Source of the DNA: an uncultured Bacilli bacterium
GTDB lineage: Bacteria; Bacillota_I; Bacilli_A; RF39; UBA660
NCBI GenBank assembly: GCA_944358355.1
Contig: CALVQY010000003.1
Coordinates: 1 to 51,917, forward strand
DNA: 51,917 nucleotides
Direction: 5' to 3'
The notes beneath the pieces are model-generated. The model saw only the letters and a program-made list of their open reading frames with translations, ran no database searches and had not been told where the DNA came from. Every line of letters starts with the position of its first letter. The stretch's first letter is position 1. This document shows positions 3,895 through 46,724 of this stretch, piece by piece. Both the position numbers and the translations under genes were made by a program.

Positions 3895-4497
3895 TTATAT
3901 ATGAGTAGCAATAAAATCTAATACATCATCTTCATTTACTTTTATTAACTTCATATCTTCATCTGTCACATCTGTAAAATATTTATCTAGTTTTTTATAT
4001 TTAGAAATGGAATTCAAAGGATATCCAGGATTAATTTTATCACTCTTACTACTTACCATATAGAAATTATCTTTAGACCAACTATATGTAGCTTCTTCTC
4101 CTTTTTCATTAATAACTGCTAAACCATATATCCATTTACAGTTAATTTTACCATCTTTTCCATATTCTTTTACTAAGTTAGTATAATAATCAAGTGCTTC
4201 TTCATCAGTTAGGCTCTTACCATTTACACGTCTTACGAATAGTCCTGGCTGTTTTTCTTCAGGAACCCCTTCCATATATAGTGTATCATCCATACCCATA
4301 CAAGGCTTTTTTGTAAGTCTATAACACTCTCTTGCTTTTATTAAAGCATTTTCAATAGCGGTACTTCCATTTTCTTCTACATCTAATTTTATATCTATAT
4401 CTTTTAAAGATAGAACTTCTATTCCATGTTCCTTTAGTCCTCTACTAAATCTCTTTGATTTCGATTCATTTGAAGTTGCAAAAATAATTTGTTTCAT
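3895..4497 (-). CDS. Non-canonical purine NTP pyrophosphatase (Ham1/ITPase family)
   Basis: Motifs IIFATSN..K, VEENG.T..ENALIKA and DDTL......PG. Confidence 0.8.
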   Translation of the reverse strand: MKQIIFATSNESKSKRFSRGLKEHGIEVLSLKDIDIKLDVEENGSTAIENALIKARECYRLTKKPCMGMDDTLYMEGVPEEKQPGLFVRRVNGKSLTDEEALDYYTNLVKEYGKDGKINCKWIYGLAVINEKGEEATYSWSKDNFYMVSSKSDKINPGYPLNSISKYKKLDKYFTDVTDEDMKLIKVNEDDVLDFIATHI

Positions 4498-5432: not shown

Positions 5433-7142
5433 CTAATTTATTACGTACGGACTACTAGCAGTCCCATCTCCAGACGTAAACCCGTTTTCAGTGGTCACAT
5501 TGATAACTGGACGCAAGGAAAGGTTACTGTTAAAAGCACCTAAATCTGCCAAAAAAGCATTTTCATAATACACTCTAACCATATTTTCATAGCCACCGTC
5601 TTCTGATGATGGTGTCATACTCCAATACCATAAAAATTCATTATCACCTGCAGTTAAATAACTATTACTTATAACTCCTCCAAAGCTTTCTCCTGCTAAT
5701 ACTAACTCATCTGCTGTTATTAATCCTGCTTTTAGTCTATATGAACCACCATAACTTTCACTTGTAGTAGGGCATTTTAAAGTCGGTGTCACATTTTCTT
5801 GCATTTCTAATCCCATCAATTTTCCAAATACTGAAGCTAATCTATCAAAACTTGCAAATACACTTCTTCCCATCATTGTTTCTTCTCTATATCCACTACT
5901 ATCACTACAGAATCTTCCACTACTTACTTTACTATCATAAATACTACTTCCTAAGGCATTTTTATACCAAGTATCTACTTCTCTTTTTATAAATGAATCT
6001 GTTCCATTATCGTAGGTATAACCTGCATACTTTGGATTATCATGCTCTAAATTATAGAAAGTATTCCCAACTGAATATGAATGTGCTAAATCACTATTAT
6101 CAGGGGTTGCACTTGTTCCATTATAGATTAATCTTAAGCTTCCATCTCCATTTACTCTTACTATCTTCCAGTACATCTTATCTCCTGCACTTGCTAACTT
6201 TACTTGAGTACATCCATCTTCATATCCAACATTAGCTTCCCTACAACTTTCTAGACTTTGATAATAAAGCCCATTATTTTCATATACATAATAATCACTT
6301 ACATATTCTCCAAATTGAACATTATTATTTGTTACCGCTCCCCTATAATAATAACTAACACCATCTTCATCATTCATACTATATAGTCCATTAGTCACTT
6401 GACTAGGTTCACTTCCATATTGAGGACCTTCCTCTGTAATTGATGCTATATAACTTCCATTACTTGCATAATTAAACATATTAGTTGTTTCTTCTTGTAA
6501 CTCATTATCTTCAAGTATCTTTTGTGTTGTCAATGGTACATATTTATCTCCTGCTTTTCCATACACATTTATTCTTACACTAAATGTTAATCCTCCTCCA
6601 TCTCCCTGGGGATTATAACTCTCATCTACATACATTCTTAGCCTATAATTATTAGATTCACTAGAGTTCATACTACTTGTATATAAACTCATCTCATTTA
6701 CTGGTCTTCCTGTATAATCATTAGCACTACTCTCTTCATTATATGTCTCAGGTACCATTAAAGCTTCTTCACTACCATCATCTGTTAATCTAATTAGATA
6801 TAACTTTATATATCTACCACCTATAGTATTACCATCTTCTTTTTTAGCACTTATCTCATAGTTGATATTTACATCACCTGTTATTTCACTACTTACACTA
6901 AAGTCAAAATACTCCCCTGGATTTAGTCTTACCATTCCAGTCTTATCAGTAGTTGGTAATGCTCCATTTAAACTTATTGTATTATCTGTTTCAGTATATG
7001 TCATTGTAATAGAACCTGTCGTTATAGAGTTTACTTTACTACCTGTTTTACTATAACTAAAGGCAGCATAACTTACTCCTATTATCGCTAGTATCATTAC
7101 TACTAACACTACTATTATTATAATATTTTCCTTTTTCTTCAT
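5433..7142 (-). CDS. Modular exported surface protein: SipW-type signal, TasA/CalY-like N-domain, variable C-terminal domain
   Basis: Signal ends GVSYA/AF. The first ~195 aa are strongly similar to 44359-45930. The C-terminal region has YYYRG, WKIVRVNGDGSLRLIY, GLITADE, YWSMTP, LRPVIN and GDGT...PY. Confidence 0.75.
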   Translation of the reverse strand: MKKKENIIIIVVLVVMILAIIGVSYAAFSYSKTGSKVNSITTGSITMTYTETDNTISLNGALPTTDKTGMVRLNPGEYFDFSVSSEITGDVNINYEISAKKEDGNTIGGRYIKLYLIRLTDDGSEEALMVPETYNEESSANDYTGRPVNEMSLYTSSMNSSESNNYRLRMYVDESYNPQGDGGGLTFSVRINVYGKAGDKYVPLTTQKILEDNELQEETTNMFNYASNGSYIASITEEGPQYGSEPSQVTNGLYSMNDEDGVSYYYRGAVTNNNVQFGEYVSDYYVYENNGLYYQSLESCREANVGYEDGCTQVKLASAGDKMYWKIVRVNGDGSLRLIYNGTSATPDNSDLAHSYSVGNTFYNLEHDNPKYAGYTYDNGTDSFIKREVDTWYKNALGSSIYDSKVSSGRFCSDSSGYREETMMGRSVFASFDRLASVFGKLMGLEMQENVTPTLKCPTTSESYGGSYRLKAGLITADELVLAGESFGGVISNSYLTAGDNEFLWYWSMTPSSEDGGYENMVRVYYENAFLADLGAFNSNLSLRPVINVTTENGFTSGDGTASSPYVIN

Positions 7143-7180
7143 CTTTCACTTTTCTCCTTTATTATTTTTCTCACACCATC

Positions 7181-7211
7181 AAAAAGAACAGAATAATACT
7201 ATCCTGCTCTT
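7181..7211 (-). terminator. Intrinsic terminator/attenuator hairpin of leader copy 1
   Basis: AAGAGCAGGATA-GTAT-TATTCTGTTCTT followed by TTT, about 40 nt upstream of the 7142 start codon. Confidence 0.75.
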
Positions 7212-7268
7212 ATATCATAATGAAAGAAAGTATTATTTAAACTACCATTCTGGTAATTTAAGCACCTT

Positions 7269-7379
7269 TTATGCCCCCCCCCAGGTAACACATTGTAAAC
7301 CTGAAGTTTTAGAAAAATGACGAATTAATTTACCCCAGAATTGACGATTTATTTTACCCTGATAAATTGAATTAGCCAT
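7269..7379 (-). CDS. Leader peptide uORF copy 1 (36 aa, ...GLQCVTWGGA*); the +1 frame extends to 7199 ending TFFHYDIRAG*
   Basis: SD AAGAAAGGAAG before the ATG; G9 tract at 7274-7282; homologous uORFs start at 28361 and 46087. Confidence 0.65.
   Translation of the reverse strand: MANSIYQGKINRQFWGKLIRHFSKTSGLQCVTWGGA
7274..7282 (-). repeat. G9 homopolymer tract in leader uORF
   Basis: ccccccccc on the + strand, in very AT-rich DNA. Confidence 0.95.
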
Positions 7380-7475
7380 ATCTACTACTTCCTTTCTTAT
7401 CTTTGTTAACTTAATCTTAACATATAATCATATCACATTACAAGTAACTTATTTGTATTTGTAACTTTCCTTATT

Positions 7476-9758
7476 TTACATATTATCTTCTTCACTATCA
7501 TCTAACTTAACAAGTACTTCTCTAGGCTTAGAACCATTAGGTGGTCCAATAATACCTCGCTCTTCTAATAAGTCAATAATACGCGCTGCTCTATTATAAC
7601 CTAGTTTAAACCTTCTTTGTAATAGTGATGCACTTGCTTTCTGAGTCTCTATAACAAACTCTACTATCTCATTATATAATGGATCATCGTACTCTTCCAC
7701 TTGAGCCATATCTTCTTTCTGTGATGCACTCTTTTCACTATCTCCAGATAAATTCATGAATGCTTGATCATACTCAGCTTTTTGTTGTTCTATTGTGTAA
7801 TCAATAATTCTTTTAATCTCATCATCAGAAATAAAGGCTCCTTGAATACGTTCTGGATCTGCTTCTCCCATTGGTAAGAATAACATATCACCTTTACCAA
7901 GTAGTTTTTCTGCACCTGTCATATCAAGAATTGTACGTGAGTCGATACTACTAGATACAGCGAAAGAAATACGACTTGGAATATTCGCTTTAACAACACC
8001 AGTAATTACATCTGTTGATGGTCTTTGAGTAGCAATAATCAAATGAATTCCGGCAGCACGAGCCATTTGGGTAATTCTCATAATAGATGCTTCTACATCT
8101 TTACTTGCAACTAACATAAGGTCTGCTAACTCATCTATTATTACGACAATAAATGGCATCTTATTCATCTGTTCATCCGCTGGTAAAGTCTTATTCATCT
8201 TCTCTACATAATCATTATAAGTTGCAATATTCTTAGTCTTAGTCTCACTAAATGTATCATAACGTCTTTCCATCTCTGAAACTATTTTAGCAAGGGCAAC
8301 TGAGGCTTCCTTAGGATCAGTTACAACTGGTCTCATTAGATGAGGAACACCATTATAACCAGAAAGTTCAACCTTTTTAGGGTCAACCATGACAAGTTTA
8401 ACTTCATCAGGTTTCGCTCTCATTAAAATAGAACAGATAATACCATTGATACATACAGATTTACCTGAACCAGTAGAACCTGCTACTAAAAGGTGTGGTG
8501 TTTTATTAATTTCACACCAAATAACATTACCCATAATATTTTTACCTAAAGGACATAATAGTTTAGAACCATCTAAAGACTTAGGTACTTTTTCTAATAC
8601 TTCTCTAAATGATACAGAAGCTGTTTCTTTATTGGCAATTTCTATACCTACAGTGTTTTTACCAGGAATTGGGGCTTGAATTCTAACATCTTTAGTAGCT
8701 ATGGCTAAAGCTATTTCTCTATGTATTGATAAAAGTTTACTAACCTTAGTACCAGAATGTAATTCTAACTCATACTGAGTAACTGTAGGACCAATATGTA
8801 CTTCTACTACTTTACCAATAATATTAAAGTCTTTTAATACTTTTTCTAGTATTTCTATATTCTTTTCAATTAAACTCTGATTAACACTATTCTTCTTTTT
8901 CTTAGGTGGATCTAATAGATTAATAGATGGCAAAACATAGTTATGTTTAACTGTAACTTTATTTTCATCTACAACATTTACTTCACTAACCTCTTTTTCA
9001 TCTTTAGAAGTATCTTCATGAACTTTCGCTTTAGTTAACTCATCGATACTAGATATAACGATTCTTTTATCATCATCTTTTATCTCACCCATAGCAGGTT
9101 CAACATTACCTGTTATGATAGGTTTCTTAGTACTAACTTCTTCATCACTACTACTCTTATCCTTCTTAGGAAATTTCTCTTTAGCAGCCTTAGCTTTGTC
9201 TTTAACAAAATCGACAATTGAAAAGCCAGTAAACAAAGAAAAGCCTATAATAATTAAGGTCCAAGCGATTATTTGCATTCCCTTATATGAGAATAATAGC
9301 ATAAATAAAACACCAAAAGTACAACCAATTATTCCTCCTCCTATAGCATTAGGCCTTGCCCCTTTCATAACATCAGAAAAGGAATTGATTAATTGATCTA
9401 CTGTTTCACTAAATACCTTTATAGCATTGCCATCATTCTGTAGTAGATAAGTTTCATGCATTAGGACCAAAACACCTATTAATAATAGATATATACCTAA
9501 CATTTTCGTTGTAAATAAATTAGGCCACTCTCTATTTATAATTAAATATACTCCTAATATTAAAAGTACAACTAATAAAGGATTATATAAAACTCCTACT
9601 AGAAATATTGCAAAAGATGCAATCATATTACCAACTGGTCCATATCTACCAATACCAAGTATTGCTGCTAAGATAAGTAATATTCCATATAGTTCTGTAG
9701 AATGAGCGAAGCCTTTTTTAGTTTCCTTCTTTTTCTTTCTTTTTGCCATAACTACCAC
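7476..9758 (-). CDS. ftsK: DNA translocase FtsK/SpoIIIE
   Basis: N-terminal TM helices; PHLLVAGSTGSGKS, IIDELADLM, ATQRPS, and gamma domain SLLQRRFKLGYNRAAR. Confidence 0.95.
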   Translation of the reverse strand: MVVMAKRKKKKETKKGFAHSTELYGILLILAAILGIGRYGPVGNMIASFAIFLVGVLYNPLLVVLLILGVYLIINREWPNLFTTKMLGIYLLLIGVLVLMHETYLLQNDGNAIKVFSETVDQLINSFSDVMKGARPNAIGGGIIGCTFGVLFMLLFSYKGMQIIAWTLIIIGFSLFTGFSIVDFVKDKAKAAKEKFPKKDKSSSDEEVSTKKPIITGNVEPAMGEIKDDDKRIVISSIDELTKAKVHEDTSKDEKEVSEVNVVDENKVTVKHNYVLPSINLLDPPKKKKNSVNQSLIEKNIEILEKVLKDFNIIGKVVEVHIGPTVTQYELELHSGTKVSKLLSIHREIALAIATKDVRIQAPIPGKNTVGIEIANKETASVSFREVLEKVPKSLDGSKLLCPLGKNIMGNVIWCEINKTPHLLVAGSTGSGKSVCINGIICSILMRAKPDEVKLVMVDPKKVELSGYNGVPHLMRPVVTDPKEASVALAKIVSEMERRYDTFSETKTKNIATYNDYVEKMNKTLPADEQMNKMPFIVVIIDELADLMLVASKDVEASIMRITQMARAAGIHLIIATQRPSTDVITGVVKANIPSRISFAVSSSIDSRTILDMTGAEKLLGKGDMLFLPMGEADPERIQGAFISDDEIKRIIDYTIEQQKAEYDQAFMNLSGDSEKSASQKEDMAQVEEYDDPLYNEIVEFVIETQKASASLLQRRFKLGYNRAARIIDLLEERGIIGPPNGSKPREVLVKLDDSEEDNM

Positions 9759-26711: not shown

Positions 26712-28115
26712 TTGATTACTATGGTCTCATATGATATGACCAAAACACCAGTTGTTAATGTAGTAGATGATATAATCGCTAACGCCTCAAAAGCCGGGGC
26801 TAGTGATATACATTTTGATCCAAGAGAAAATAGTCTGATGGTAAGAATAAGAGTAGATGGTGATTTACAAGATTATACTGAAATACCTAAGATTTATGAA
26901 AGAAATTTAATTACAAGAATAAAACTAATCGCTAATATGAATATAACTGAAAGTAGGCTTCCTCAAGATGGATCTATAAAAGGAACTATAAAAGGAATAA
27001 ATTTAGAGACACGTGTATCAACCCTACCTACTAATGAAGGTGAAAAATGTGTTATACGTATTCTTGATTATTCTAGAAGTTTACAAGGAATTGACACTTT
27101 AGGGTTTAATGAAGATAATTTGAAAAAATTAAAGAAAATGATCGCTGAACCTAATGGTATTATCTTAATAACAGGAGCGACTGGTAGTGGTAAAAGTACT
27201 ACTGTTTATTCTATTTTACAAGTATTAAATAAAAAAGAGACTAATATTATAACTGTAGAAGATCCAATAGAAATGAATCTTGAAGGATTAAATCAAGTAC
27301 AAGTAAATAGTGAAATAGGACTTGACTTTGCTACTGTTTTAAGATCTATTTTAAGACAGGACCCTAATGTTATTCTTATCGGAGAAATTCGTGATAGTGA
27401 AACTGCTAAAATAGCGGTACGTGCTTCTATAACAGGACACTTAGTATTATCTACAATCCATACTAATAACTCTTTAAGTACAATTGAAAGATTACTTGAT
27501 ATGAATGTTGAAAGATATTTGTTATCTAGTGCTTTATCTGGTATTATATCGCAGAAGCTTGCAAAGAAGGTATGTCCACATTGTAGATTAAAAGAAGAAA
27601 CTACTCCTTATCAAAGGAAAGTATTTAAGCTTGCTTTAGATAAAGATGTTAATTATATATATAATGCTAATCCTAAAGGGTGTGATAAATGTAATAACGG
27701 TTATCATGGTCGTATTGCTATTCAAGAAGTATTGATGATTAATGATGAGATTAGAAGTGCACTAAATGAAGAAAGTTTAGAAAAAGAAGATTTAAATAAA
27801 TTAGTATATAAATCTGATGTTATTACTATGTTACAAGATGGATTATTAAAAGTTTTAGATGGTTCTACTACTTTTGATGAGATATACAAGATTATTGATG
27901 TGGATGATGACTTAGATATTTATTGTAAGATTAGAGATATAGAATATAATGAGAATAATGACAATAATGACAATAATGACAATAAAGATGTAGAAGAAAA
28001 AGAAGAAGTCAAAGATGAAAAGAAAGAAAATGATATCAATATAAGTACGGATGAAGAAGTTAATACTCCAATAATTCAAATACATAATATAACTAAGGAA
28101 GATGAGGTATTATAA
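26712..28115 (+). CDS. GspE/PilB/ComGA family pilus assembly ATPase
   Basis: ASDIHF, RLPQDG, GATGSGKS, LRQDPNVILIGEIRD, TGHLVLSTIH and CxxC...CxxC; acidic tail. Confidence 0.92.
   Translation: MITMVSYDMTKTPVVNVVDDIIANASKAGASDIHFDPRENSLMVRIRVDGDLQDYTEIPKIYERNLITRIKLIANMNITESRLPQDGSIKGTIKGINLETRVSTLPTNEGEKCVIRILDYSRSLQGIDTLGFNEDNLKKLKKMIAEPNGIILITGATGSGKSTTVYSILQVLNKKETNIITVEDPIEMNLEGLNQVQVNSEIGLDFATVLRSILRQDPNVILIGEIRDSETAKIAVRASITGHLVLSTIHTNNSLSTIERLLDMNVERYLLSSALSGIISQKLAKKVCPHCRLKEETTPYQRKVFKLALDKDVNYIYNANPKGCDKCNNGYHGRIAIQEVLMINDEIRSALNEESLEKEDLNKLVYKSDVITMLQDGLLKVLDGSTTFDEIYKIIDVDDDLDIYCKIRDIEYNENNDNNDNNDNKDVEEKEEVKDEKKENDINISTDEEVNTPIIQIHNITKEDEVL
27954..27983 (+). repeat. 9-bp tandem repeat (AATAATGAC) x3 encoding NND
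   Basis: Seen directly in the 3' end of the ATPase gene. Confidence 0.8.
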
Positions 28116-28237: not shown

Positions 28238-28268
28238 AAAAAGAACAGAATACACTTATCCTGCTCTT
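28238..28268 (-). terminator. Terminator/attenuator hairpin of leader copy 2
   Basis: AAGAGCAGGATA-AGTG-TATTCTGTTCTT followed by TTT. Confidence 0.7.
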
Positions 28269-28310
28269 ATATCATAATGAAAGAAAGTATTATTAATGTT
28301 TAAACTATCA

Positions 28311-28361
28311 TTACAATAATTTAAACACCCCAGTAACATATTGTAAACAAATTCTCCTCAT
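28311..28361 (-). CDS. Leader peptide uORF copy 2 (MRRICLQYVTGVFKLL*); the +1 frame extends to 28256 ending TFFHYDIRAG*
   Basis: SD AAGAAAGAAGG; G tract reduced to G4 (28328-28331). Confidence 0.55.
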   Translation of the reverse strand: MRRICLQYVTGVFKLL

Positions 28362-28424
28362 TTTTTTACCTTCTTTCTTATCTTCGTTATCTATATATTA
28401 ACATAATTAATTAGATAATTTCAA

Positions 28425-43154: not shown

Positions 43155-43435
43155 TAATTCAACATCTCCTTACCTAAGATTTACTACTTGTTTTTTTGAA
43201 AGGCCTGTATATTCACACACTTTAGGAATAGGTAATCCATCTTTAAGAAGATTCTTAGCAATAGATTTTTTCTCATTATTAGCGCCTTTTTTGATACCTT
43301 CTTTCTCTCCTTCTGCTTTAAGACTATTCATCATCTTTTCATTCTCCTCTGCTTCATCATAAAGACCTACTGTATTAATATCTAAACTTAATCTTTTTAA
43401 TTCATTAGCAACTTCCATTAATTCAACATCTCCTT
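43030..43435. repeat. 142-bp direct repeat (43030-43171 and 43294-43435) with 2 mismatches
   Basis: Direct comparison of the two segments. Confidence 0.9.
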
Positions 43436-44054
43436 CCGCTATTCTCTCTATTTCATCTATTTTTCTTAATCTTAATATTAACATTTCTTTTTCTAGTTTA
43501 CTAAGTTCTAATCCTTTTTTATACTTCTTATAAACTTTCTTAAAACTTAAATGGTATTTTTCCCATTTTACACTTTCTACTACCCCATTTTCATCTCTTG
43601 ATTTAAAGACTTCTTTTACATTCTTCTTATTAAGATGATTAAAATTATTTAAATTTATCTGTATTGCTTTTGGCATATTCTCATAAGTATAATTTTTATT
43701 AGATATATCTATTTTTATTTTATCTAAGTAATCATCATTTCTAATTATAGTCGCTAAACTATATCTATTGTTTAACTCATAGTTGATAATGTAACCCTCT
43801 ATACCAAATAGTATATCAGATCTTTTTCCACGTTCTAAAGCGTTACTTATAACAAATTCCGTATTCTTTTCATAATAAGTTTTAAGTATTAAATCTTTAG
43901 GTATATCAGTTATCCTGTAAGTCATATCTGCTTTAAAAAGCAAACAATTAGTCATAATAGATTTATAAATATAATCATTACTGGCAGAAAAGACTTCTCC
44001 CTTTTCTTGTAACTCTTTTATTCTTTCTTCTGGAGTCTTTTTTGACGATTTCAA
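43170..44054 (-). CDS. Rpn family / PD-(D/E)XK nuclease (PDDEXK_2-like)
   Basis: ND..YK, KRSDIL...IINYELN and AIQINLNNF; C-terminal EG.KEG.KKG...IAKNLL..G.....V..YTGLS. Confidence 0.75.
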   Translation of the reverse strand: MKSSKKTPEERIKELQEKGEVFSASNDYIYKSIMTNCLLFKADMTYRITDIPKDLILKTYYEKNTEFVISNALERGKRSDILFGIEGYIINYELNNRYSLATIIRNDDYLDKIKIDISNKNYTYENMPKAIQINLNNFNHLNKKNVKEVFKSRDENGVVESVKWEKYHLSFKKVYKKYKKGLELSKLEKEMLILRLRKIDEIERIAEGDVELMEVANELKRLSLDINTVGLYDEAEENEKMMNSLKAEGEKEGIKKGANNEKKSIAKNLLKDGLPIPKVCEYTGLSKKQVVNLR

Positions 44055-44358: not shown

Positions 44359-45930
44359 TTATACATAAGTAAAGTCAGTTACTCCACTATCTGCAATAGT
44401 AGAATTAGGTATAGTCCAAGTATCTCTTGTTACAAGTATCTCTGTTATGTTAGCCATATCATTAAACATTGTATTATAACTCGTTACTTTAGAAGTATCA
44501 AAACTTGTTAAATCTAAGTGAGTAAGATTCTCACAATGCTGAAACATCTGGGACATAGAAGTAACATTCGAAGTGTCAAAGTTACTTAAGTCTAAATCTG
44601 TTAAACTTCTACAGCCATAAAACATTTGAGACATTATAGTTACTTTATTTGTATTAAAGGAACTAACGTCTAAATTATTTAAATATCTACAATATGAAAA
44701 CATCATTGACATATTAGTAACATTTGAGGTGTCAAAATTTTTTCCAAATACTACTTTTGTTAAAGACATATAAGTGTTACTTGAAAACATACTGCCAGAA
44801 AACATCATTGACATACTAGTAACATTTGAGGTATCAAATGAACTTAAATCTAATACTGTTAAACTTCTACAATCATAAAACATCATTGACATATTAGTAA
44901 CATTTGAGGTGTCAAAATAATCACTAAAAATTATATTGTTTAACAATTTATTACCTGTACCAAGCACAGCAGATCCAACAGATCCAAACATAGAAGACAT
45001 ATCAGTAGTTAAACTTGTATTCAAATAACTTAAATCCATTGTAATACAATTGGGAAAGCCATCAAAATATTGTTGCATATTAGTATTAGCAATTATACTA
45101 CCTTCTCCACCTATTGTTACTTTATATGTTCCAGCACCTGTTCCGTCATCTTCTATATATGCTATTACACTTTCATTTTGTTTCTCTGATATATCCCAAC
45201 TTTCTATTACTCCTTCTGGTATTATTGTATCGCCTTTTGTTACTATACTTGTTATTTTACTTTTATATTCATCAGTGTGAAAGTCACTAGGATTACTGGA
45301 ATCATATGCCATCATCATTCTATCTTCCATGGATAAGCCATCTTTTCCATAGACATTTATTTGTACTGAAAAAGTAAGATTTCCTCCATCTCCTTGTGGA
45401 TTATAATCTTCATCTACATACATTCTAAGTCTATATCTATTACTTTCACTAGAATTCATACTACTTGTATATAAACTCATCTCTCCTGATGGACGTCCTG
45501 TATAACTATTAGTAGTACTCTCTTCACTATATACTCTAGGTGTCATTATTTCTTCTTCACCATCATCTGTTAATCTTGTTAGATATAACTTTATATTAGA
45601 ACCATCTATTGTTCCATTACCTACTTCTTTAGCACTTATTTCATAGTTAATATTTACATCCCCTGTAATAGTACTACTTACAGTAAAATCAAAATATTCT
45701 CCAGAATTTAATCGTTTTTTTCCTGTCTCATCAGTTGTTGGTAGGGCTCCGTTTAAACTAATAGTATTACTACTTTCTTCATAACTCATTGTAATAGAAC
45801 CTGTTGTTATTGTATTTAGCTTAGTTCCTTCTCCTGTAAATCTAAAGGCTGCGTATGATACTCCTAACACTGCTATTATTAATACTACCATTAATCCTAA
45901 TATTACTACTTCTTTCTTTTTATTTACCAT
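44359..45930 (-). CDS. Modular exported surface protein: SipW-type signal, TasA/CalY-like N-domain, BspA/DUF285 leucine-rich repeats
   Basis: GVSYA/AF; N-domain shared with 5433-7142; repeats of LDLS.FDTSNVT.MS.MF..C..L. Confidence 0.85.
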   Translation of the reverse strand: MVNKKKEVVILGLMVVLIIAVLGVSYAAFRFTGEGTKLNTITTGSITMSYEESSNTISLNGALPTTDETGKKRLNSGEYFDFTVSSTITGDVNINYEISAKEVGNGTIDGSNIKLYLTRLTDDGEEEIMTPRVYSEESTTNSYTGRPSGEMSLYTSSMNSSESNRYRLRMYVDEDYNPQGDGGNLTFSVQINVYGKDGLSMEDRMMMAYDSSNPSDFHTDEYKSKITSIVTKGDTIIPEGVIESWDISEKQNESVIAYIEDDGTGAGTYKVTIGGEGSIIANTNMQQYFDGFPNCITMDLSYLNTSLTTDMSSMFGSVGSAVLGTGNKLLNNIIFSDYFDTSNVTNMSMMFYDCRSLTVLDLSSFDTSNVTSMSMMFSGSMFSSNTYMSLTKVVFGKNFDTSNVTNMSMMFSYCRYLNNLDVSSFNTNKVTIMSQMFYGCRSLTDLDLSNFDTSNVTSMSQMFQHCENLTHLDLTSFDTSKVTSYNTMFNDMANITEILVTRDTWTIPNSTIADSGVTDFTYV

Positions 45931-45966: not shown

Positions 45967-45997
45967 AAAAAGAACAGAATATAATTATCCTGCTCTT
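45967..45997 (-). terminator. Terminator/attenuator hairpin of leader copy 3
   Basis: AAGAGCAGGATA-ATTA-TATTCTGTTCTT followed by TTT, 36 nt upstream of the 45930 start. Confidence 0.75.
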
Positions 45998-46039
45998 ATA
46001 TCATAATGAAAGAAAGTAATTATCTTACTATTTCTATGT

Positions 46040-46087
46040 CTAAACTGCCCCCCCCCAGGTAACAAGTTGTAAACAAATTCTTCTCAT
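46040..46087 (-). CDS. Leader peptide uORF copy 3 (MRRICLQLVTWGGAV*); the +1 frame extends to 45985 ending TFFHYDIRAG*
   Basis: SD GAAAGAGGG; G9 tract at 46048-46056. Confidence 0.65.
   Translation of the reverse strand: MRRICLQLVTWGGAV
46048..46056 (-). repeat. G9 homopolymer tract in leader uORF
   Basis: ccccccccc on the + strand. Confidence 0.95.
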
Positions 46088-46112
46088 TTTTTAACCCTCT
46101 TTCTCATTATCT

Positions 46113-46658
46113 TTATCTTGTTTGTTCACCAGTTATTCTAAGTTTTCCTTTCCATACTTGACCACCAAAGTCTCCATCTATTTCTACTGTTGGCCAAACT
46201 CTTAAAACATAACTGTTTGTTTCATTACTTGTTAGAGTTCCTTGATCTAATATTCTAGAACCATCTTCTCCTAATGTCTCTAAATATTCTGCTGTTCCTA
46301 CACTATCATTTTTATCTAAGCTATATTTCAAATACATTTCATCCAACTTAACATCAGGAGATGTTATTTCTATATCATCTAAATAAATAACATAATCTGC
46401 TGTAGCAGTACCTGTATTTTCTAATGTAAAATCATAACCATCTAGTGCTAGACCGTCACTATCTGTCAAAGGATAAGTATCTACTAAATTAATAGTGTTG
46501 CCTTCAGTCAAGTTAAGTTTTAAAGTACCTGAAGTAATTACATTTTCTCTTTGACCTTCTCCTAAGAACCTAAAGGCAGCATATGATAATACTATTATTA
46601 TAATTATTAATGCTACTAGTAAGACAACTAACATTATTTTATTTCTTTTCTCATTCAT
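46113..46658 (-). CDS. Single-domain TasA/CalY-like exported protein (SipW-type signal)
   Basis: LSYA/AF...N.ITSGTL, FTLENTG and Y.LRVW...FGGQ.WKG.L.I; SD AGGTGA before the ATG at 46658. Confidence 0.7.
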   Translation of the reverse strand: MNEKRNKIMLVVLLVALIIIIIVLSYAAFRFLGEGQRENVITSGTLKLNLTEGNTINLVDTYPLTDSDGLALDGYDFTLENTGTATADYVIYLDDIEITSPDVKLDEMYLKYSLDKNDSVGTAEYLETLGEDGSRILDQGTLTSNETNSYVLRVWPTVEIDGDFGGQVWKGKLRITGEQTR

Positions 46659-46724
46659 ATTCTCACCTACATTATATATCAAGTATAGCATTAATAAATA
46701 TTTCTTTCAATAAATTTTTAATTT

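Follow-up and report, generated by a model that had tools for sequence, protein, structure and literature searches.

A multi-copy poly-G leader cassette as a probable phase-variable transcription attenuator of surface-protein genes in an uncultured lineage of chicken-gut Bacilli

What is the function of a run of nine guanines within a short open reading frame (ORF) that precedes a surface-protein gene of an uncultured Bacilli bacterium? This question is raised by positions 7181-7425, on the minus strand, of a 51,917-nucleotide (nt) stretch of DNA (contig CALVQY010000003.1 of assembly GCA_944358355.1, GTDB lineage RF39; UBA660; hereafter the window), which belongs to a genome of 1.50 Mb in 93 contigs with 27% G+C. 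The locus combines a leader ORF containing a G9 tract, a conserved box and an intrinsic-terminator hairpin, and the box recurs twice more in the window. Based on a comparison of related copies throughout the genus, the element is interpreted here, with a probability of roughly 0.7, as a portable cassette that acts as a phase-variable leader-peptide transcription attenuator operated by slipped-strand mispairing.

In copy 1 (Table 1), the leader ORF as assembled passes through the G9 tract and stops soon behind it. The frame shifted by +1 reads ...GGGHKRCLNYQNGSLNNTFFHYDIRAG*, and its TAG stop (7201-7199) lies at the apex of the hairpin, where the 5' arm meets the loop (GTAT, 7199-7196). The T run (7185-7181) contains five T, one of which is counted within the stem, and the ATG of the downstream gene (cargo 1, position 7142) lies 39 nt beyond it. 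The hairpin folds with -12.8 kcal/mol (z -3.5); the hairpins of the three copies range from -12.6 to -12.8 kcal/mol (z -3.5 to -4.0), and none of 200 shuffles was equally stable. The box region ACTTTCTTTC...AGAGCAGGA encodes TFFHYDIRAG. Re-reading of the window sequence reproduced every coordinate that an earlier interpretation made from the letters alone (hereafter the sequence-only reading) had given for copy 1. Its frame reading was also borne out, in that copies 1 and 3, both G9 and out of frame as assembled, would be put in frame by G8 or G11. The N-terminus of this long leader (window 7300-7379, minus strand), like that of leaders at three other loci, contains a 24-nt in-frame tandem unit, QGKINRQF / WGKLIRHF.

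In the favoured explanation, a promoter and a Shine-Dalgarno (SD)-ATG signal would start a leader ORF that is either short (MRRICLQxVTWGG...) or long (MANSIYQGKINRQFWGKLIRHF...LQxVTWGG...) and that enters a poly-G tract, most often G9. Slipped-strand mispairing would alter the length of this tract and thereby set the reading frame downstream of it. In two of the frames, ribosomes would meet a stop codon about 2-20 nt past the tract and 22 nt or more short of the terminator; the hairpin would then form, and transcription would end ahead of the cargo (OFF). The third frame would remain open for 10-25 codons and stop at the 5' arm/loop junction; a ribosome translating or terminating at this apex would cover the 5' arm, which would keep the hairpin from forming and let RNA polymerase read on (ON). 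The surface-protein gene about 35 nt further, mostly predicted to have no promoter of its own, would then be transcribed by read-through. Since 10-38 cassettes are present per genome, each cell would be expected to show a stochastic subset of paralogous surface proteins. The anatomy of the element, its conservation, its frame logic, the covariation of its hairpin and the differences in tract length between genomes are all observed features.

A survey of the genome and its relatives, which the sequence-only reading had proposed, placed the module throughout the genus, with tract, frame and cargo tabulated. Of 52 genomes from the genus, 35 contain the 5' part TTTACAAnnnGTTACCT followed by poly-G (372 matches in total, at most 38 per genome), and a reversed-pattern control gave no match. 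By the same kind of pattern search, the 5' part was absent from 194 genomes of 97 other genera in the same order. The box occurs nine times in the window's own genome when up to seven mismatches are allowed; with no more than three mismatches, it was detected in 18 of 36 other genomes of the genus and in none of 24 genomes of other genera. Some genomes carry modules in arrays, about one per 2-kb gene. Many modules, in four of the genomes and others, are located 60-350 nt from contig ends. Assemblies tend to break at the cassette, and copy numbers are therefore lower bounds. The window's genome contains 11 G/C runs of at least 7 nt, 10 of which follow the 5' module; the only other one, a G8 run on contig C50 (2453-2460) in the context GAAGAAGAAGGGGGGGGC and apparently within an ORF, lends itself to use as an internal control. 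The stretch or part of it is contained in 20 sequencing runs (23 listed), all of which are chicken, bird or gut metagenomes.

The frame logic was analysed in sets of copies that are related to each other and are hence not independent trials. One set comprised 71 distinct box copies from the fetched loci and the window's genome, of which 68 (19 genomes) were analysed, two copies at locus edges and one without a G run being left out. In 67 of these 68 copies, the box frame can be followed upstream through the tract without a stop codon, and the other two frames are open for no more than 14 nt, with a single exception of 76 nt. Among 90 distinct linkers between tract and hairpin, which are 18-60 nt long and differ greatly in sequence, at least one frame is open in all 90 and exactly one in 87, compared with a mean of 57.6 and a maximum of 70 of the 90 in 300 mononucleotide shuffles. 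Another set comprised 115 non-redundant 5' modules with enough flanking sequence, in which a terminator was defined as a perfect stem of at least 7 base pairs with a T-rich tail no more than 160 nt from the tract. An ATG in the LQxVTW frame is present in 112 of them, with an SD-like AAGG or GAAGG upstream (AGAAAGAAGGT-type in other copies), and a terminator follows the tract in 110. Exactly one frame stops in the hairpin in 92 of these 110 modules, and two frames do so in 4. The conservation of frame that had been noticed in the window therefore holds across further copies. In addition, 73 of 102 modules have a TGnTAnnnT motif no more than 70 nt ahead of the leader ATG, for which a rough estimate of chance occurrence is about 15%; a consensus promoter scan did not list the TGTTAAGAT site of leader 1, and a -35 element is absent there.

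The position of the stop codons agrees with an ON state and two OFF states. Of 100 stop codons that end a hairpin-reaching frame, 64 finish 1 nt past the 5' arm and 95 finish within 3 nt. The hairpin is reached in the leader frame itself (ON) by 16 modules, in the +1 frame by 51 and in the +2 frame by 25. In the 76 OFF copies, 22-58 nt (median 34) separate the end of the leader-frame stop from the hairpin base, the distance being less than 28 nt in 8 copies and less than 15 nt in none. The tracts themselves measure G3 (1), G5 (1), G6 (7), G7 (5), G8 (10), G9 (66), G10 (20) and G11 (5).

The hairpin has been maintained while its sequence and the peptide it encodes have changed. The arms AGAGCAGGATA / TATTCTGTTCT of type A encode ...IRAG*, and other arms encode ...RRIE* (AGAATAGAGTA / TATTCTATTCT), ...LKE* (AAAGAATAGAG / TTCTATTCTTT) and ...KQD* (AACAAGATT / AGTCTTGTT), the apex position of the stop being kept across all four; IRTE* and RRTG* are also found among the C-termini of sister leaders. 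In 74 distinct hairpins, 91.9% of cells are paired, as against 47-74% with a slid partner. One pair alternates between C-G (50) and U-A (14), and 19 cells have changed on both sides, a result matched in 0 of 500 shuffles. Rfam gave no match in the window at gathering scores, and a search of 7100-7500 with E-value thresholds gave only chance-level hits (best 18.5 bits versus a cut-off of 48.4). By eye, no convincing alternative pairing of the 5' arm (a 2:3 antiterminator) was seen, no systematic test having been made.

The genes downstream of the cassette encode paralogous anchored proteins. Cargo 1 and cargo 3 are 71% identical over their first 198 amino acids (aa) and then diverge. No significant Pfam or NCBIfam match was found for cargo 1, and its more than 4190 homologues are all unnamed or hypothetical, including a 72-74% identical hypothetical protein of Candidatus Onthousia excrementipullorum (Bacilli incertae sedis). 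Overall, these ORFs fall into a small number of related families, in which ...SYAAF..., ...YFSYAMFTV... or ...TYAYF... comes after a hydrophobic N-terminal segment. None of the cargo ORFs contains a G/C run of 7 nt or more; the tract is located in a separate leader ORF, at least 130 nt upstream of the cargo ATG. Comparative anatomy thus strongly supports the earlier proposal that the switch resides outside the cargo gene, in a leader that can be re-used. The median distance between terminator and cargo ATG is 35 nt, and 89 of 107 copies have a spacer of 60 nt or less. No promoter-like site was found in 80 short spacers, which indicates that most cargoes have no other source of transcription. 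On contigs C11, C22, C36 and C87 of the window's genome and at three further loci, copies with spacers of about 100 nt have a conserved promoter-like GTCAAAAATATTGATA-N17-TAAAAT/TAATAT behind the terminator and ahead of the cargo, and a site of this type would be a second, switch-independent cargo promoter. Just downstream of cargo 3, an ORF at 43170-44054 (minus strand) has a sub-threshold match to the Rpn-family recombination-promoting nuclease/putative transposase (TIGR01784, E 2.5e-10).

Differences in tract length are found at otherwise identical loci. At one locus shared by three species-level genomes (G006, G008 and G023), about 200 nt after the tract are 100% identical and the sequence before it is nearly so, and the tracts are G9 (in frame), G10 (out of frame) and GAGGGGGGG, that is, GAG7, which creates a TGA. 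Another pair, obtained with looser clustering, differs as G9/G11. A G-to-A change within the tract that gives a leader-frame TGA (ACC TGA GGG...) is present in two independent copies, C2 (around 4790) and L013 (G023); such a codon interrupts the homopolymer and would lock the switch. Genome G008 has one 24-nt leader unit fewer, which represents a second, frame-neutral repeat polymorphism in the leader. Logan contigs of four metagenome runs contained only short unitigs breaking at 7182-7228, none of those listed bridging the G tract. A scan of metagenome contigs with the flanks of copy 1 and a variable gap gave no match, and the general tract-to-box pattern gave two contigs, too few for a same-locus comparison. 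The claim of the sequence-only reading that tract length decides whether a ribosome enters the terminator is strongly supported by comparative anatomy, whereas switching of the tract within a population and the dependence of read-through on leader translation are inferred. Loss of mismatch repair as a cause of tract hypermutability was ruled out, mutS and mutL both being present.

A variant of the cassette bears on what the leader transmits. On contig C7 of the same genome (about 4000-4250, minus strand), a terminator-less copy with a G10 tract precedes a cargo ORF beginning MSNIVLKDKNGK...; the single open frame of this copy crosses a hairpin in which the cargo SD is sequestered and reaches a TAA stop among the first cargo codons. 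To judge from this one copy, the variant looks like a case of phase-variable translational coupling. The coupling of its frame to the cargo start suggests that leader translation is the transmitted signal.

Several observations weigh against a freely switching attenuator. Under the criteria used, no frame stops in the hairpin in 14 of 110 modules, and in 9 of 16 copies with long spacers, a promoter-like TTGAN-17-19-TAnnnT between terminator and cargo would bypass the switch. All four near-identical pairs (at least 93% identity in both flanks) have equal tract lengths, and the tract is rather uniform, as G9 accounts for 66 of 115 tracts and for every member of several clusters of diverged paralogues (7/7, 4/4 and 2/2); this uniformity could reflect a selected fixed length rather than free switching. 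The modal G9 could also stem from mutational bias, as reported for Campylobacter. The mismatch-repair genes mutS (with MutS_I and MutS_V domains) and mutL are present, and the tract lengths, which come from short-read metagenome-assembled genomes, may be off by one. The terminator is modest (-12.7 kcal/mol, with three G-C pairs and five U), and a simple terminator scanner called no site in 7100-7520. Coupling of ribosomes to RNA polymerase is reportedly loose in Bacillus subtilis. Finally, the synonymous sites of the T-F-F codons (ACT TTC TTT) are invariant in 67-68 of the 68 box copies, which implies some nucleotide-level constraint outside the attenuator model; the D codon of the box varies among GAT, GAC and GAA (38, 26 and 4 copies).

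The uniformity of the tract would be explained by constitutive recoding, in which G9 is fixed and a +1 frameshift on GGG codons, or polymerase slippage on C9/G9, gives a tuned low level of read-through. In line with this explanation, 40 of the 51 copies that need +1 are G9, diverged paralogue clusters all retain this length, and a run of GGG codons permits perfect re-pairing after a slip, its proneness to shifting being presumed. However, a +2 shift would be needed in 25 copies and none in 16, so that the shift has no one programmed direction; the 0-frame stop does not adjoin the slip site, being separated from the tract by 2-20 nt, and G9, G10 and GAG7 alternate at an otherwise identical locus. 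Recoding is therefore considered unlikely, and because +2 and in-frame copies also exist, programmed +1 slippage, which the sequence-only reading had offered beside tract length, is kept as a minority alternative. It is quite improbable that the leader ORF is a stand-alone phase-variable small protein (27-64 aa, ...LQxVTWGG...TFFHYDIRAG) whose hairpin is its own terminator and whose cargo is independent. The conserved ends of the peptide and its N-terminal QGKINRQF repeats, the occurrence of copy 2 and other copies without a cargo, and the promoter-like sites behind the terminator in more than half of the long-spacer copies (9/16) would fit such a protein, but short spacers have no such site (0/80), the C-termini vary with hairpin type (RAG*, RIE*, LKE*, KQD*) while the stop position is kept, and the C7 variant links the leader frame directly to the cargo start. 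Furthermore, the leader peptide has no Pfam match at E of 1 or less, and its sole match in the Protein Data Bank is non-significant (E 0.23).

The invariant T-F-F codons would be better accommodated by a device acting at the RNA level, with the ORF incidental, in which the tract pairs with CUUUCUUUC in cis or with a C/U-rich small RNA (sRNA) in trans and its length tunes termination or stability. The G tract can indeed pair with the CUUUCUUUC box and does so in the minimum-energy fold (RNAfold) of 27 of the 68 copies, so that the pairing may, as a folding prediction, represent a pause hairpin. The whole of ACTTTCTTTC is invariant at the nucleotide level, synonymous sites included, unrelated type-C leaders also have pyrimidine-rich runs after the tract, and a precedent is provided by RepG-tlpB of Helicobacter pylori (in the available part of PMC8295292). 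Against it, 37 of the 68 minimum-energy folds lack such pairs, the median of expected ensemble pairs is 1.5, both partners are invariant and provide no covariation, and no Rfam family matches; moreover, the single open frame (87/90 linkers), the SD-ATG and the apex stop would be left unexplained, and a purely RNA-level device is considered highly improbable. The least probable explanation is that the 5' module and the box are merely homology blocks that anchor recombination or gene conversion for cargo shuffling and have no regulatory role. Stretches of about 200 nt that are 100% identical between species-level genomes, arrays with a module roughly every 2 kb, the Rpn-family nuclease/transposase-like ORF beside cargo 3 and the many modules at contig ends point in this direction, but the frame architecture, the apex stop and the restriction of poly-G to the module would have no explanation, and all three copies in the window are in direct orientation. 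As an added property, such an anchoring role is compatible with the attenuator.

The sequence-only reading regarded the system as undescribed. This did not stand, because the same logic has been shown experimentally for the pil1 and pil3 loci of Streptococcus gallolyticus in the available part of Danne et al. 2014 (PMC3894217), to which the following account of these loci is limited. There, the frame depends on how many GCAGA repeats a leader-peptide gene contains: a leader stop 4 base pairs before, or within, the stem-loop terminator of pil1 gives high transcription, and a stop at least 28 nt upstream of it, as in OFF isolates, gives low transcription. Mutants of the ATG or ribosome-binding site, with stops in three frames, or in the terminator confirmed a "translation-mediated anti-termination", and pil3 has the same design (PMC3894217). 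The cassette shares with these loci a repeat within an SD-ATG leader ORF, a frame-set stop near to or far from a terminator, the control of surface genes and the re-use of the design at another locus. On the other hand, pil1 contains 13-22 GCAGA pentamers, and the tract here is a G homopolymer (modal G9) with unrelated flanks, which makes the two analogues rather than homologues. One of three frames reaches the terminator here, whereas both out-of-frame states of S. gallolyticus yield long leaders; unlike in pil1, the stop is placed exactly at the hairpin apex, the flanks are conserved, and there are 10-38 copies per 1.0-1.7-Mb genome, partly in arrays. The cargoes are anchored DUF285/PARCEL-type proteins instead of sortase pili, and the host is an uncultured chicken-gut Bacilli lineage. 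A full-text search of a limited literature collection found no homopolymer or multi-copy version, and leader-peptide/terminator phase variation appeared there only for the S. gallolyticus pili. The element is thus most likely, by analogy, a non-homologous poly-G variant of a described kind of attenuator that is genus-specific, portable and multi-copy.

Other known systems share single aspects of the design. In the classical poly-G/C contingency loci of Campylobacter, Neisseria and Haemophilus, the tract is found in the cargo ORF or in its promoter. Homopolymer contingency loci are treated in the available part of PMC8355987. They resemble the cassette in their G/C tracts of 8-11 nt, AT-rich genomes, surface proteins and mixed ON/OFF frames, but here a leader ORF of its own contains the tract, the cargo ORF never undergoes a frameshift, and a terminator would relay the effect. 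In the trp and pyrBI operons of Escherichia coli, the position of a ribosome on the leader ORF decides the fate of the terminator, and the pyrBI leader ORF runs through it. Attenuation of trp is also discussed in the part of PMC3894217 mentioned above. These operons sense tRNA charging or uridine triphosphate via the speed of ribosome or polymerase, whereas the input here would be a heritable change of frame. In Clostridioides difficile, cwpV is controlled by an invertible-DNA switch that acts on termination in the leader RNA. An invertible-DNA switch also precedes flgB in this species (available part of PMC5386303). Both involve phase variation of surface structures in a 5' leader after initiation, but they depend on recombinase inversion and are not known to involve a leader peptide or a repeat tract. 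RepG-tlpB of H. pylori, on the basis of the excerpted source, likewise has a variable G-repeat in the mRNA leader of an operon related to the surface or lipopolysaccharide, and a C/U-rich partner is conceivable here too; it differs in using a trans-acting sRNA for translational control, without leader ORF or terminator logic.

The end of the type-A leader, (D/G)IRAG, matches the GIRAG of the SecM motif FSTPVWISQAQGIRAGP (PMC10192921, available part), and, as in arrest peptides, it is a conserved C-terminal stretch of a probably regulatory upstream ORF. According to the accessible portions of the sources, arrest at a stop codon is known for other peptides (NSP-stop, NAP-stop and DGMK-stop; PMC10192921, PMC10987492). 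However, SecM/RAPP peptides have R-A-(G/P)-P with a proline in the A site, and the RAG here is followed by a stop codon; the proline of RAGP is crucial, as the P91A mutant of YwcI loses arrest (PMC10987492, available part). The motif is also not kept across the leader family (RRIE*, LKE*, KQD*, IRTE*, RRTG*), and the element is not located upstream of sec or yidC. In view of the differing C-termini of sister leaders and the proline requirement, a SecM-like arrest was downgraded, and an IRAG-stop arrest is assigned a low probability. The attenuator might be elaborated into a combined device, in which a tract-CUUUCUUUC pause hairpin, a nascent SN(K/I)(I/V)TFFHYDIRAG stall at the apex stop and a leak by +1 slippage on G9 act together. 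The pause hairpin would hold RNA polymerase until the leader ribosome arrives, and the stall would be a SecM-like RAG motif that acts on termination instead of proline and locks the terminator open. As a whole, this device is doubtful; if true, it would represent a new class of arrest peptide wired to a mutational switch.

Within the window, the 32-nt box is present exactly three times, always in direct orientation, with 0 expected from 100 shuffles. The sequence-only reading described the same architecture for all three copies, with linkers of 14, 13 and 10 codons, loops GTAT, AGTG and ATTA and stops TAG, TAA and TAA. These details are correct, and the architecture was recovered at copy 3 (45967-46103), but not at copy 2 (28238-28377), whose tract is GGGGTG and which has no cargo. 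Copy 2 is a decayed relic and not a third working copy. No same-strand ORF lies downstream of it, and the next ORF, a type II/IV secretion ATPase (T2SSE, E 6e-122; window 26712-28115, plus strand), converges on it; the relic may mark a lost cargo gene. The terminator of copy 3 has arms at 45997-45986 and 45981-45970, the loop ATTA, a TAA stop at 45987-45985 and a T tail to 45967. A 192-aa ORF at 46113-46691 (minus strand) ends ...VWKGKLRITGEQTR* ahead of leader 3, and in other genomes the sequence encoding its C-terminus is again found immediately ahead of leaders, which indicates that some cassettes are located inside an operon behind a conserved small protein.

Table 1. Positions of the cassette features and cargo genes in the window.
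Feature	Position	Strand	Details
Copy 1: putative leader promoter, extended -10-like TGTTAAGAT	7414..7422	-	putative, read from sequence
Copy 1: Shine-Dalgarno-like AAGGAAG	7388..7394	-	8 nt ahead of ATG 7379-7377
Copy 1: leader ORF 1 as assembled, OFF frame, 36 aa + TAA (7271-7269)	7269..7379	-	MANSIYQGKINRQFWGKLIRHFSKTSGLQCVTWGGA*
Copy 1: conserved 5' module TTTACAATGTGTTACCT, reads LQxVT-W	7283..7299	-	pattern search across genus genomes
Copy 1: G9 homopolymer, proposed slipped-strand switch	7274..7282	-	
Copy 1: continuation frame (+1), HKRCLNYQNGSLNNTFFHYDIRAG + TAG, 24 codons	7199..7273	-	read only if G8 or G11
Copy 1: conserved 32-nt box ACTTTCTTTCATTATGATATAAGAGCAGGATA	7200..7231	-	
Copy 1: intrinsic-terminator hairpin + T run	7181..7211	-	7211-7200 pairs with 7195-7184, 12 bp
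Cargo 1, 569 aa, N-terminal hydrophobic anchor/signal	5433..7142	-	
Copy 2: leader ORF 2, MRRICLQYVTGVFKLL*	28311..28361	-	decayed tract GGGGTG at 28331-28326
Copy 2: box + terminator	28238..28288	-	arms 28268-28257, 28252-28241; loop AGTG; stop TAA 28258-28256; -12.7 kcal/mol
Copy 3: leader ORF 3 as assembled, short, MRRICLQLVTWGGAV*	46040..46087	-	begins 25 nt past stop of upstream 192-aa ORF
Copy 3: G9 tract	46048..46056	-	5' module at 46073-46057
Copy 3: continuation frame QFRHRNSKIITFFHYDIRAG*, box, terminator	45967..46047	-	box 46017-45986; 10-codon linker; -12.6 kcal/mol
Cargo 3, 523-aa anchored protein, DUF285 / PARCEL (BspA-type leucine-rich) repeats	44359..45930	-	PF03382 E 1.3e-34; TIGR02167 E 3.7e-47

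If the attenuator is correctly recognized, its independent, non-homologous invention would suggest that the design is no curiosity but a general solution. The cargo ORFs remain uninterrupted, so that truncated proteins would not be made and any gene could be plugged in. Standard screens for contingency loci, which look for tracts in or just upstream of long ORFs, would mis-assign the switch, and the cargo would be annotated as constitutive. With the cassette as a simple sequence signature, the ON/OFF repertoire could be read from metagenomes. It would place dozens of paralogous surface genes in a 1.5-Mb genome under separate stochastic switches, and it probably controls a large surface-protein repertoire in this uncultured lineage of chicken-gut Bacilli. 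Extensive surface variation is thus predicted for these bacteria, which may bear on their colonisation and immune evasion.

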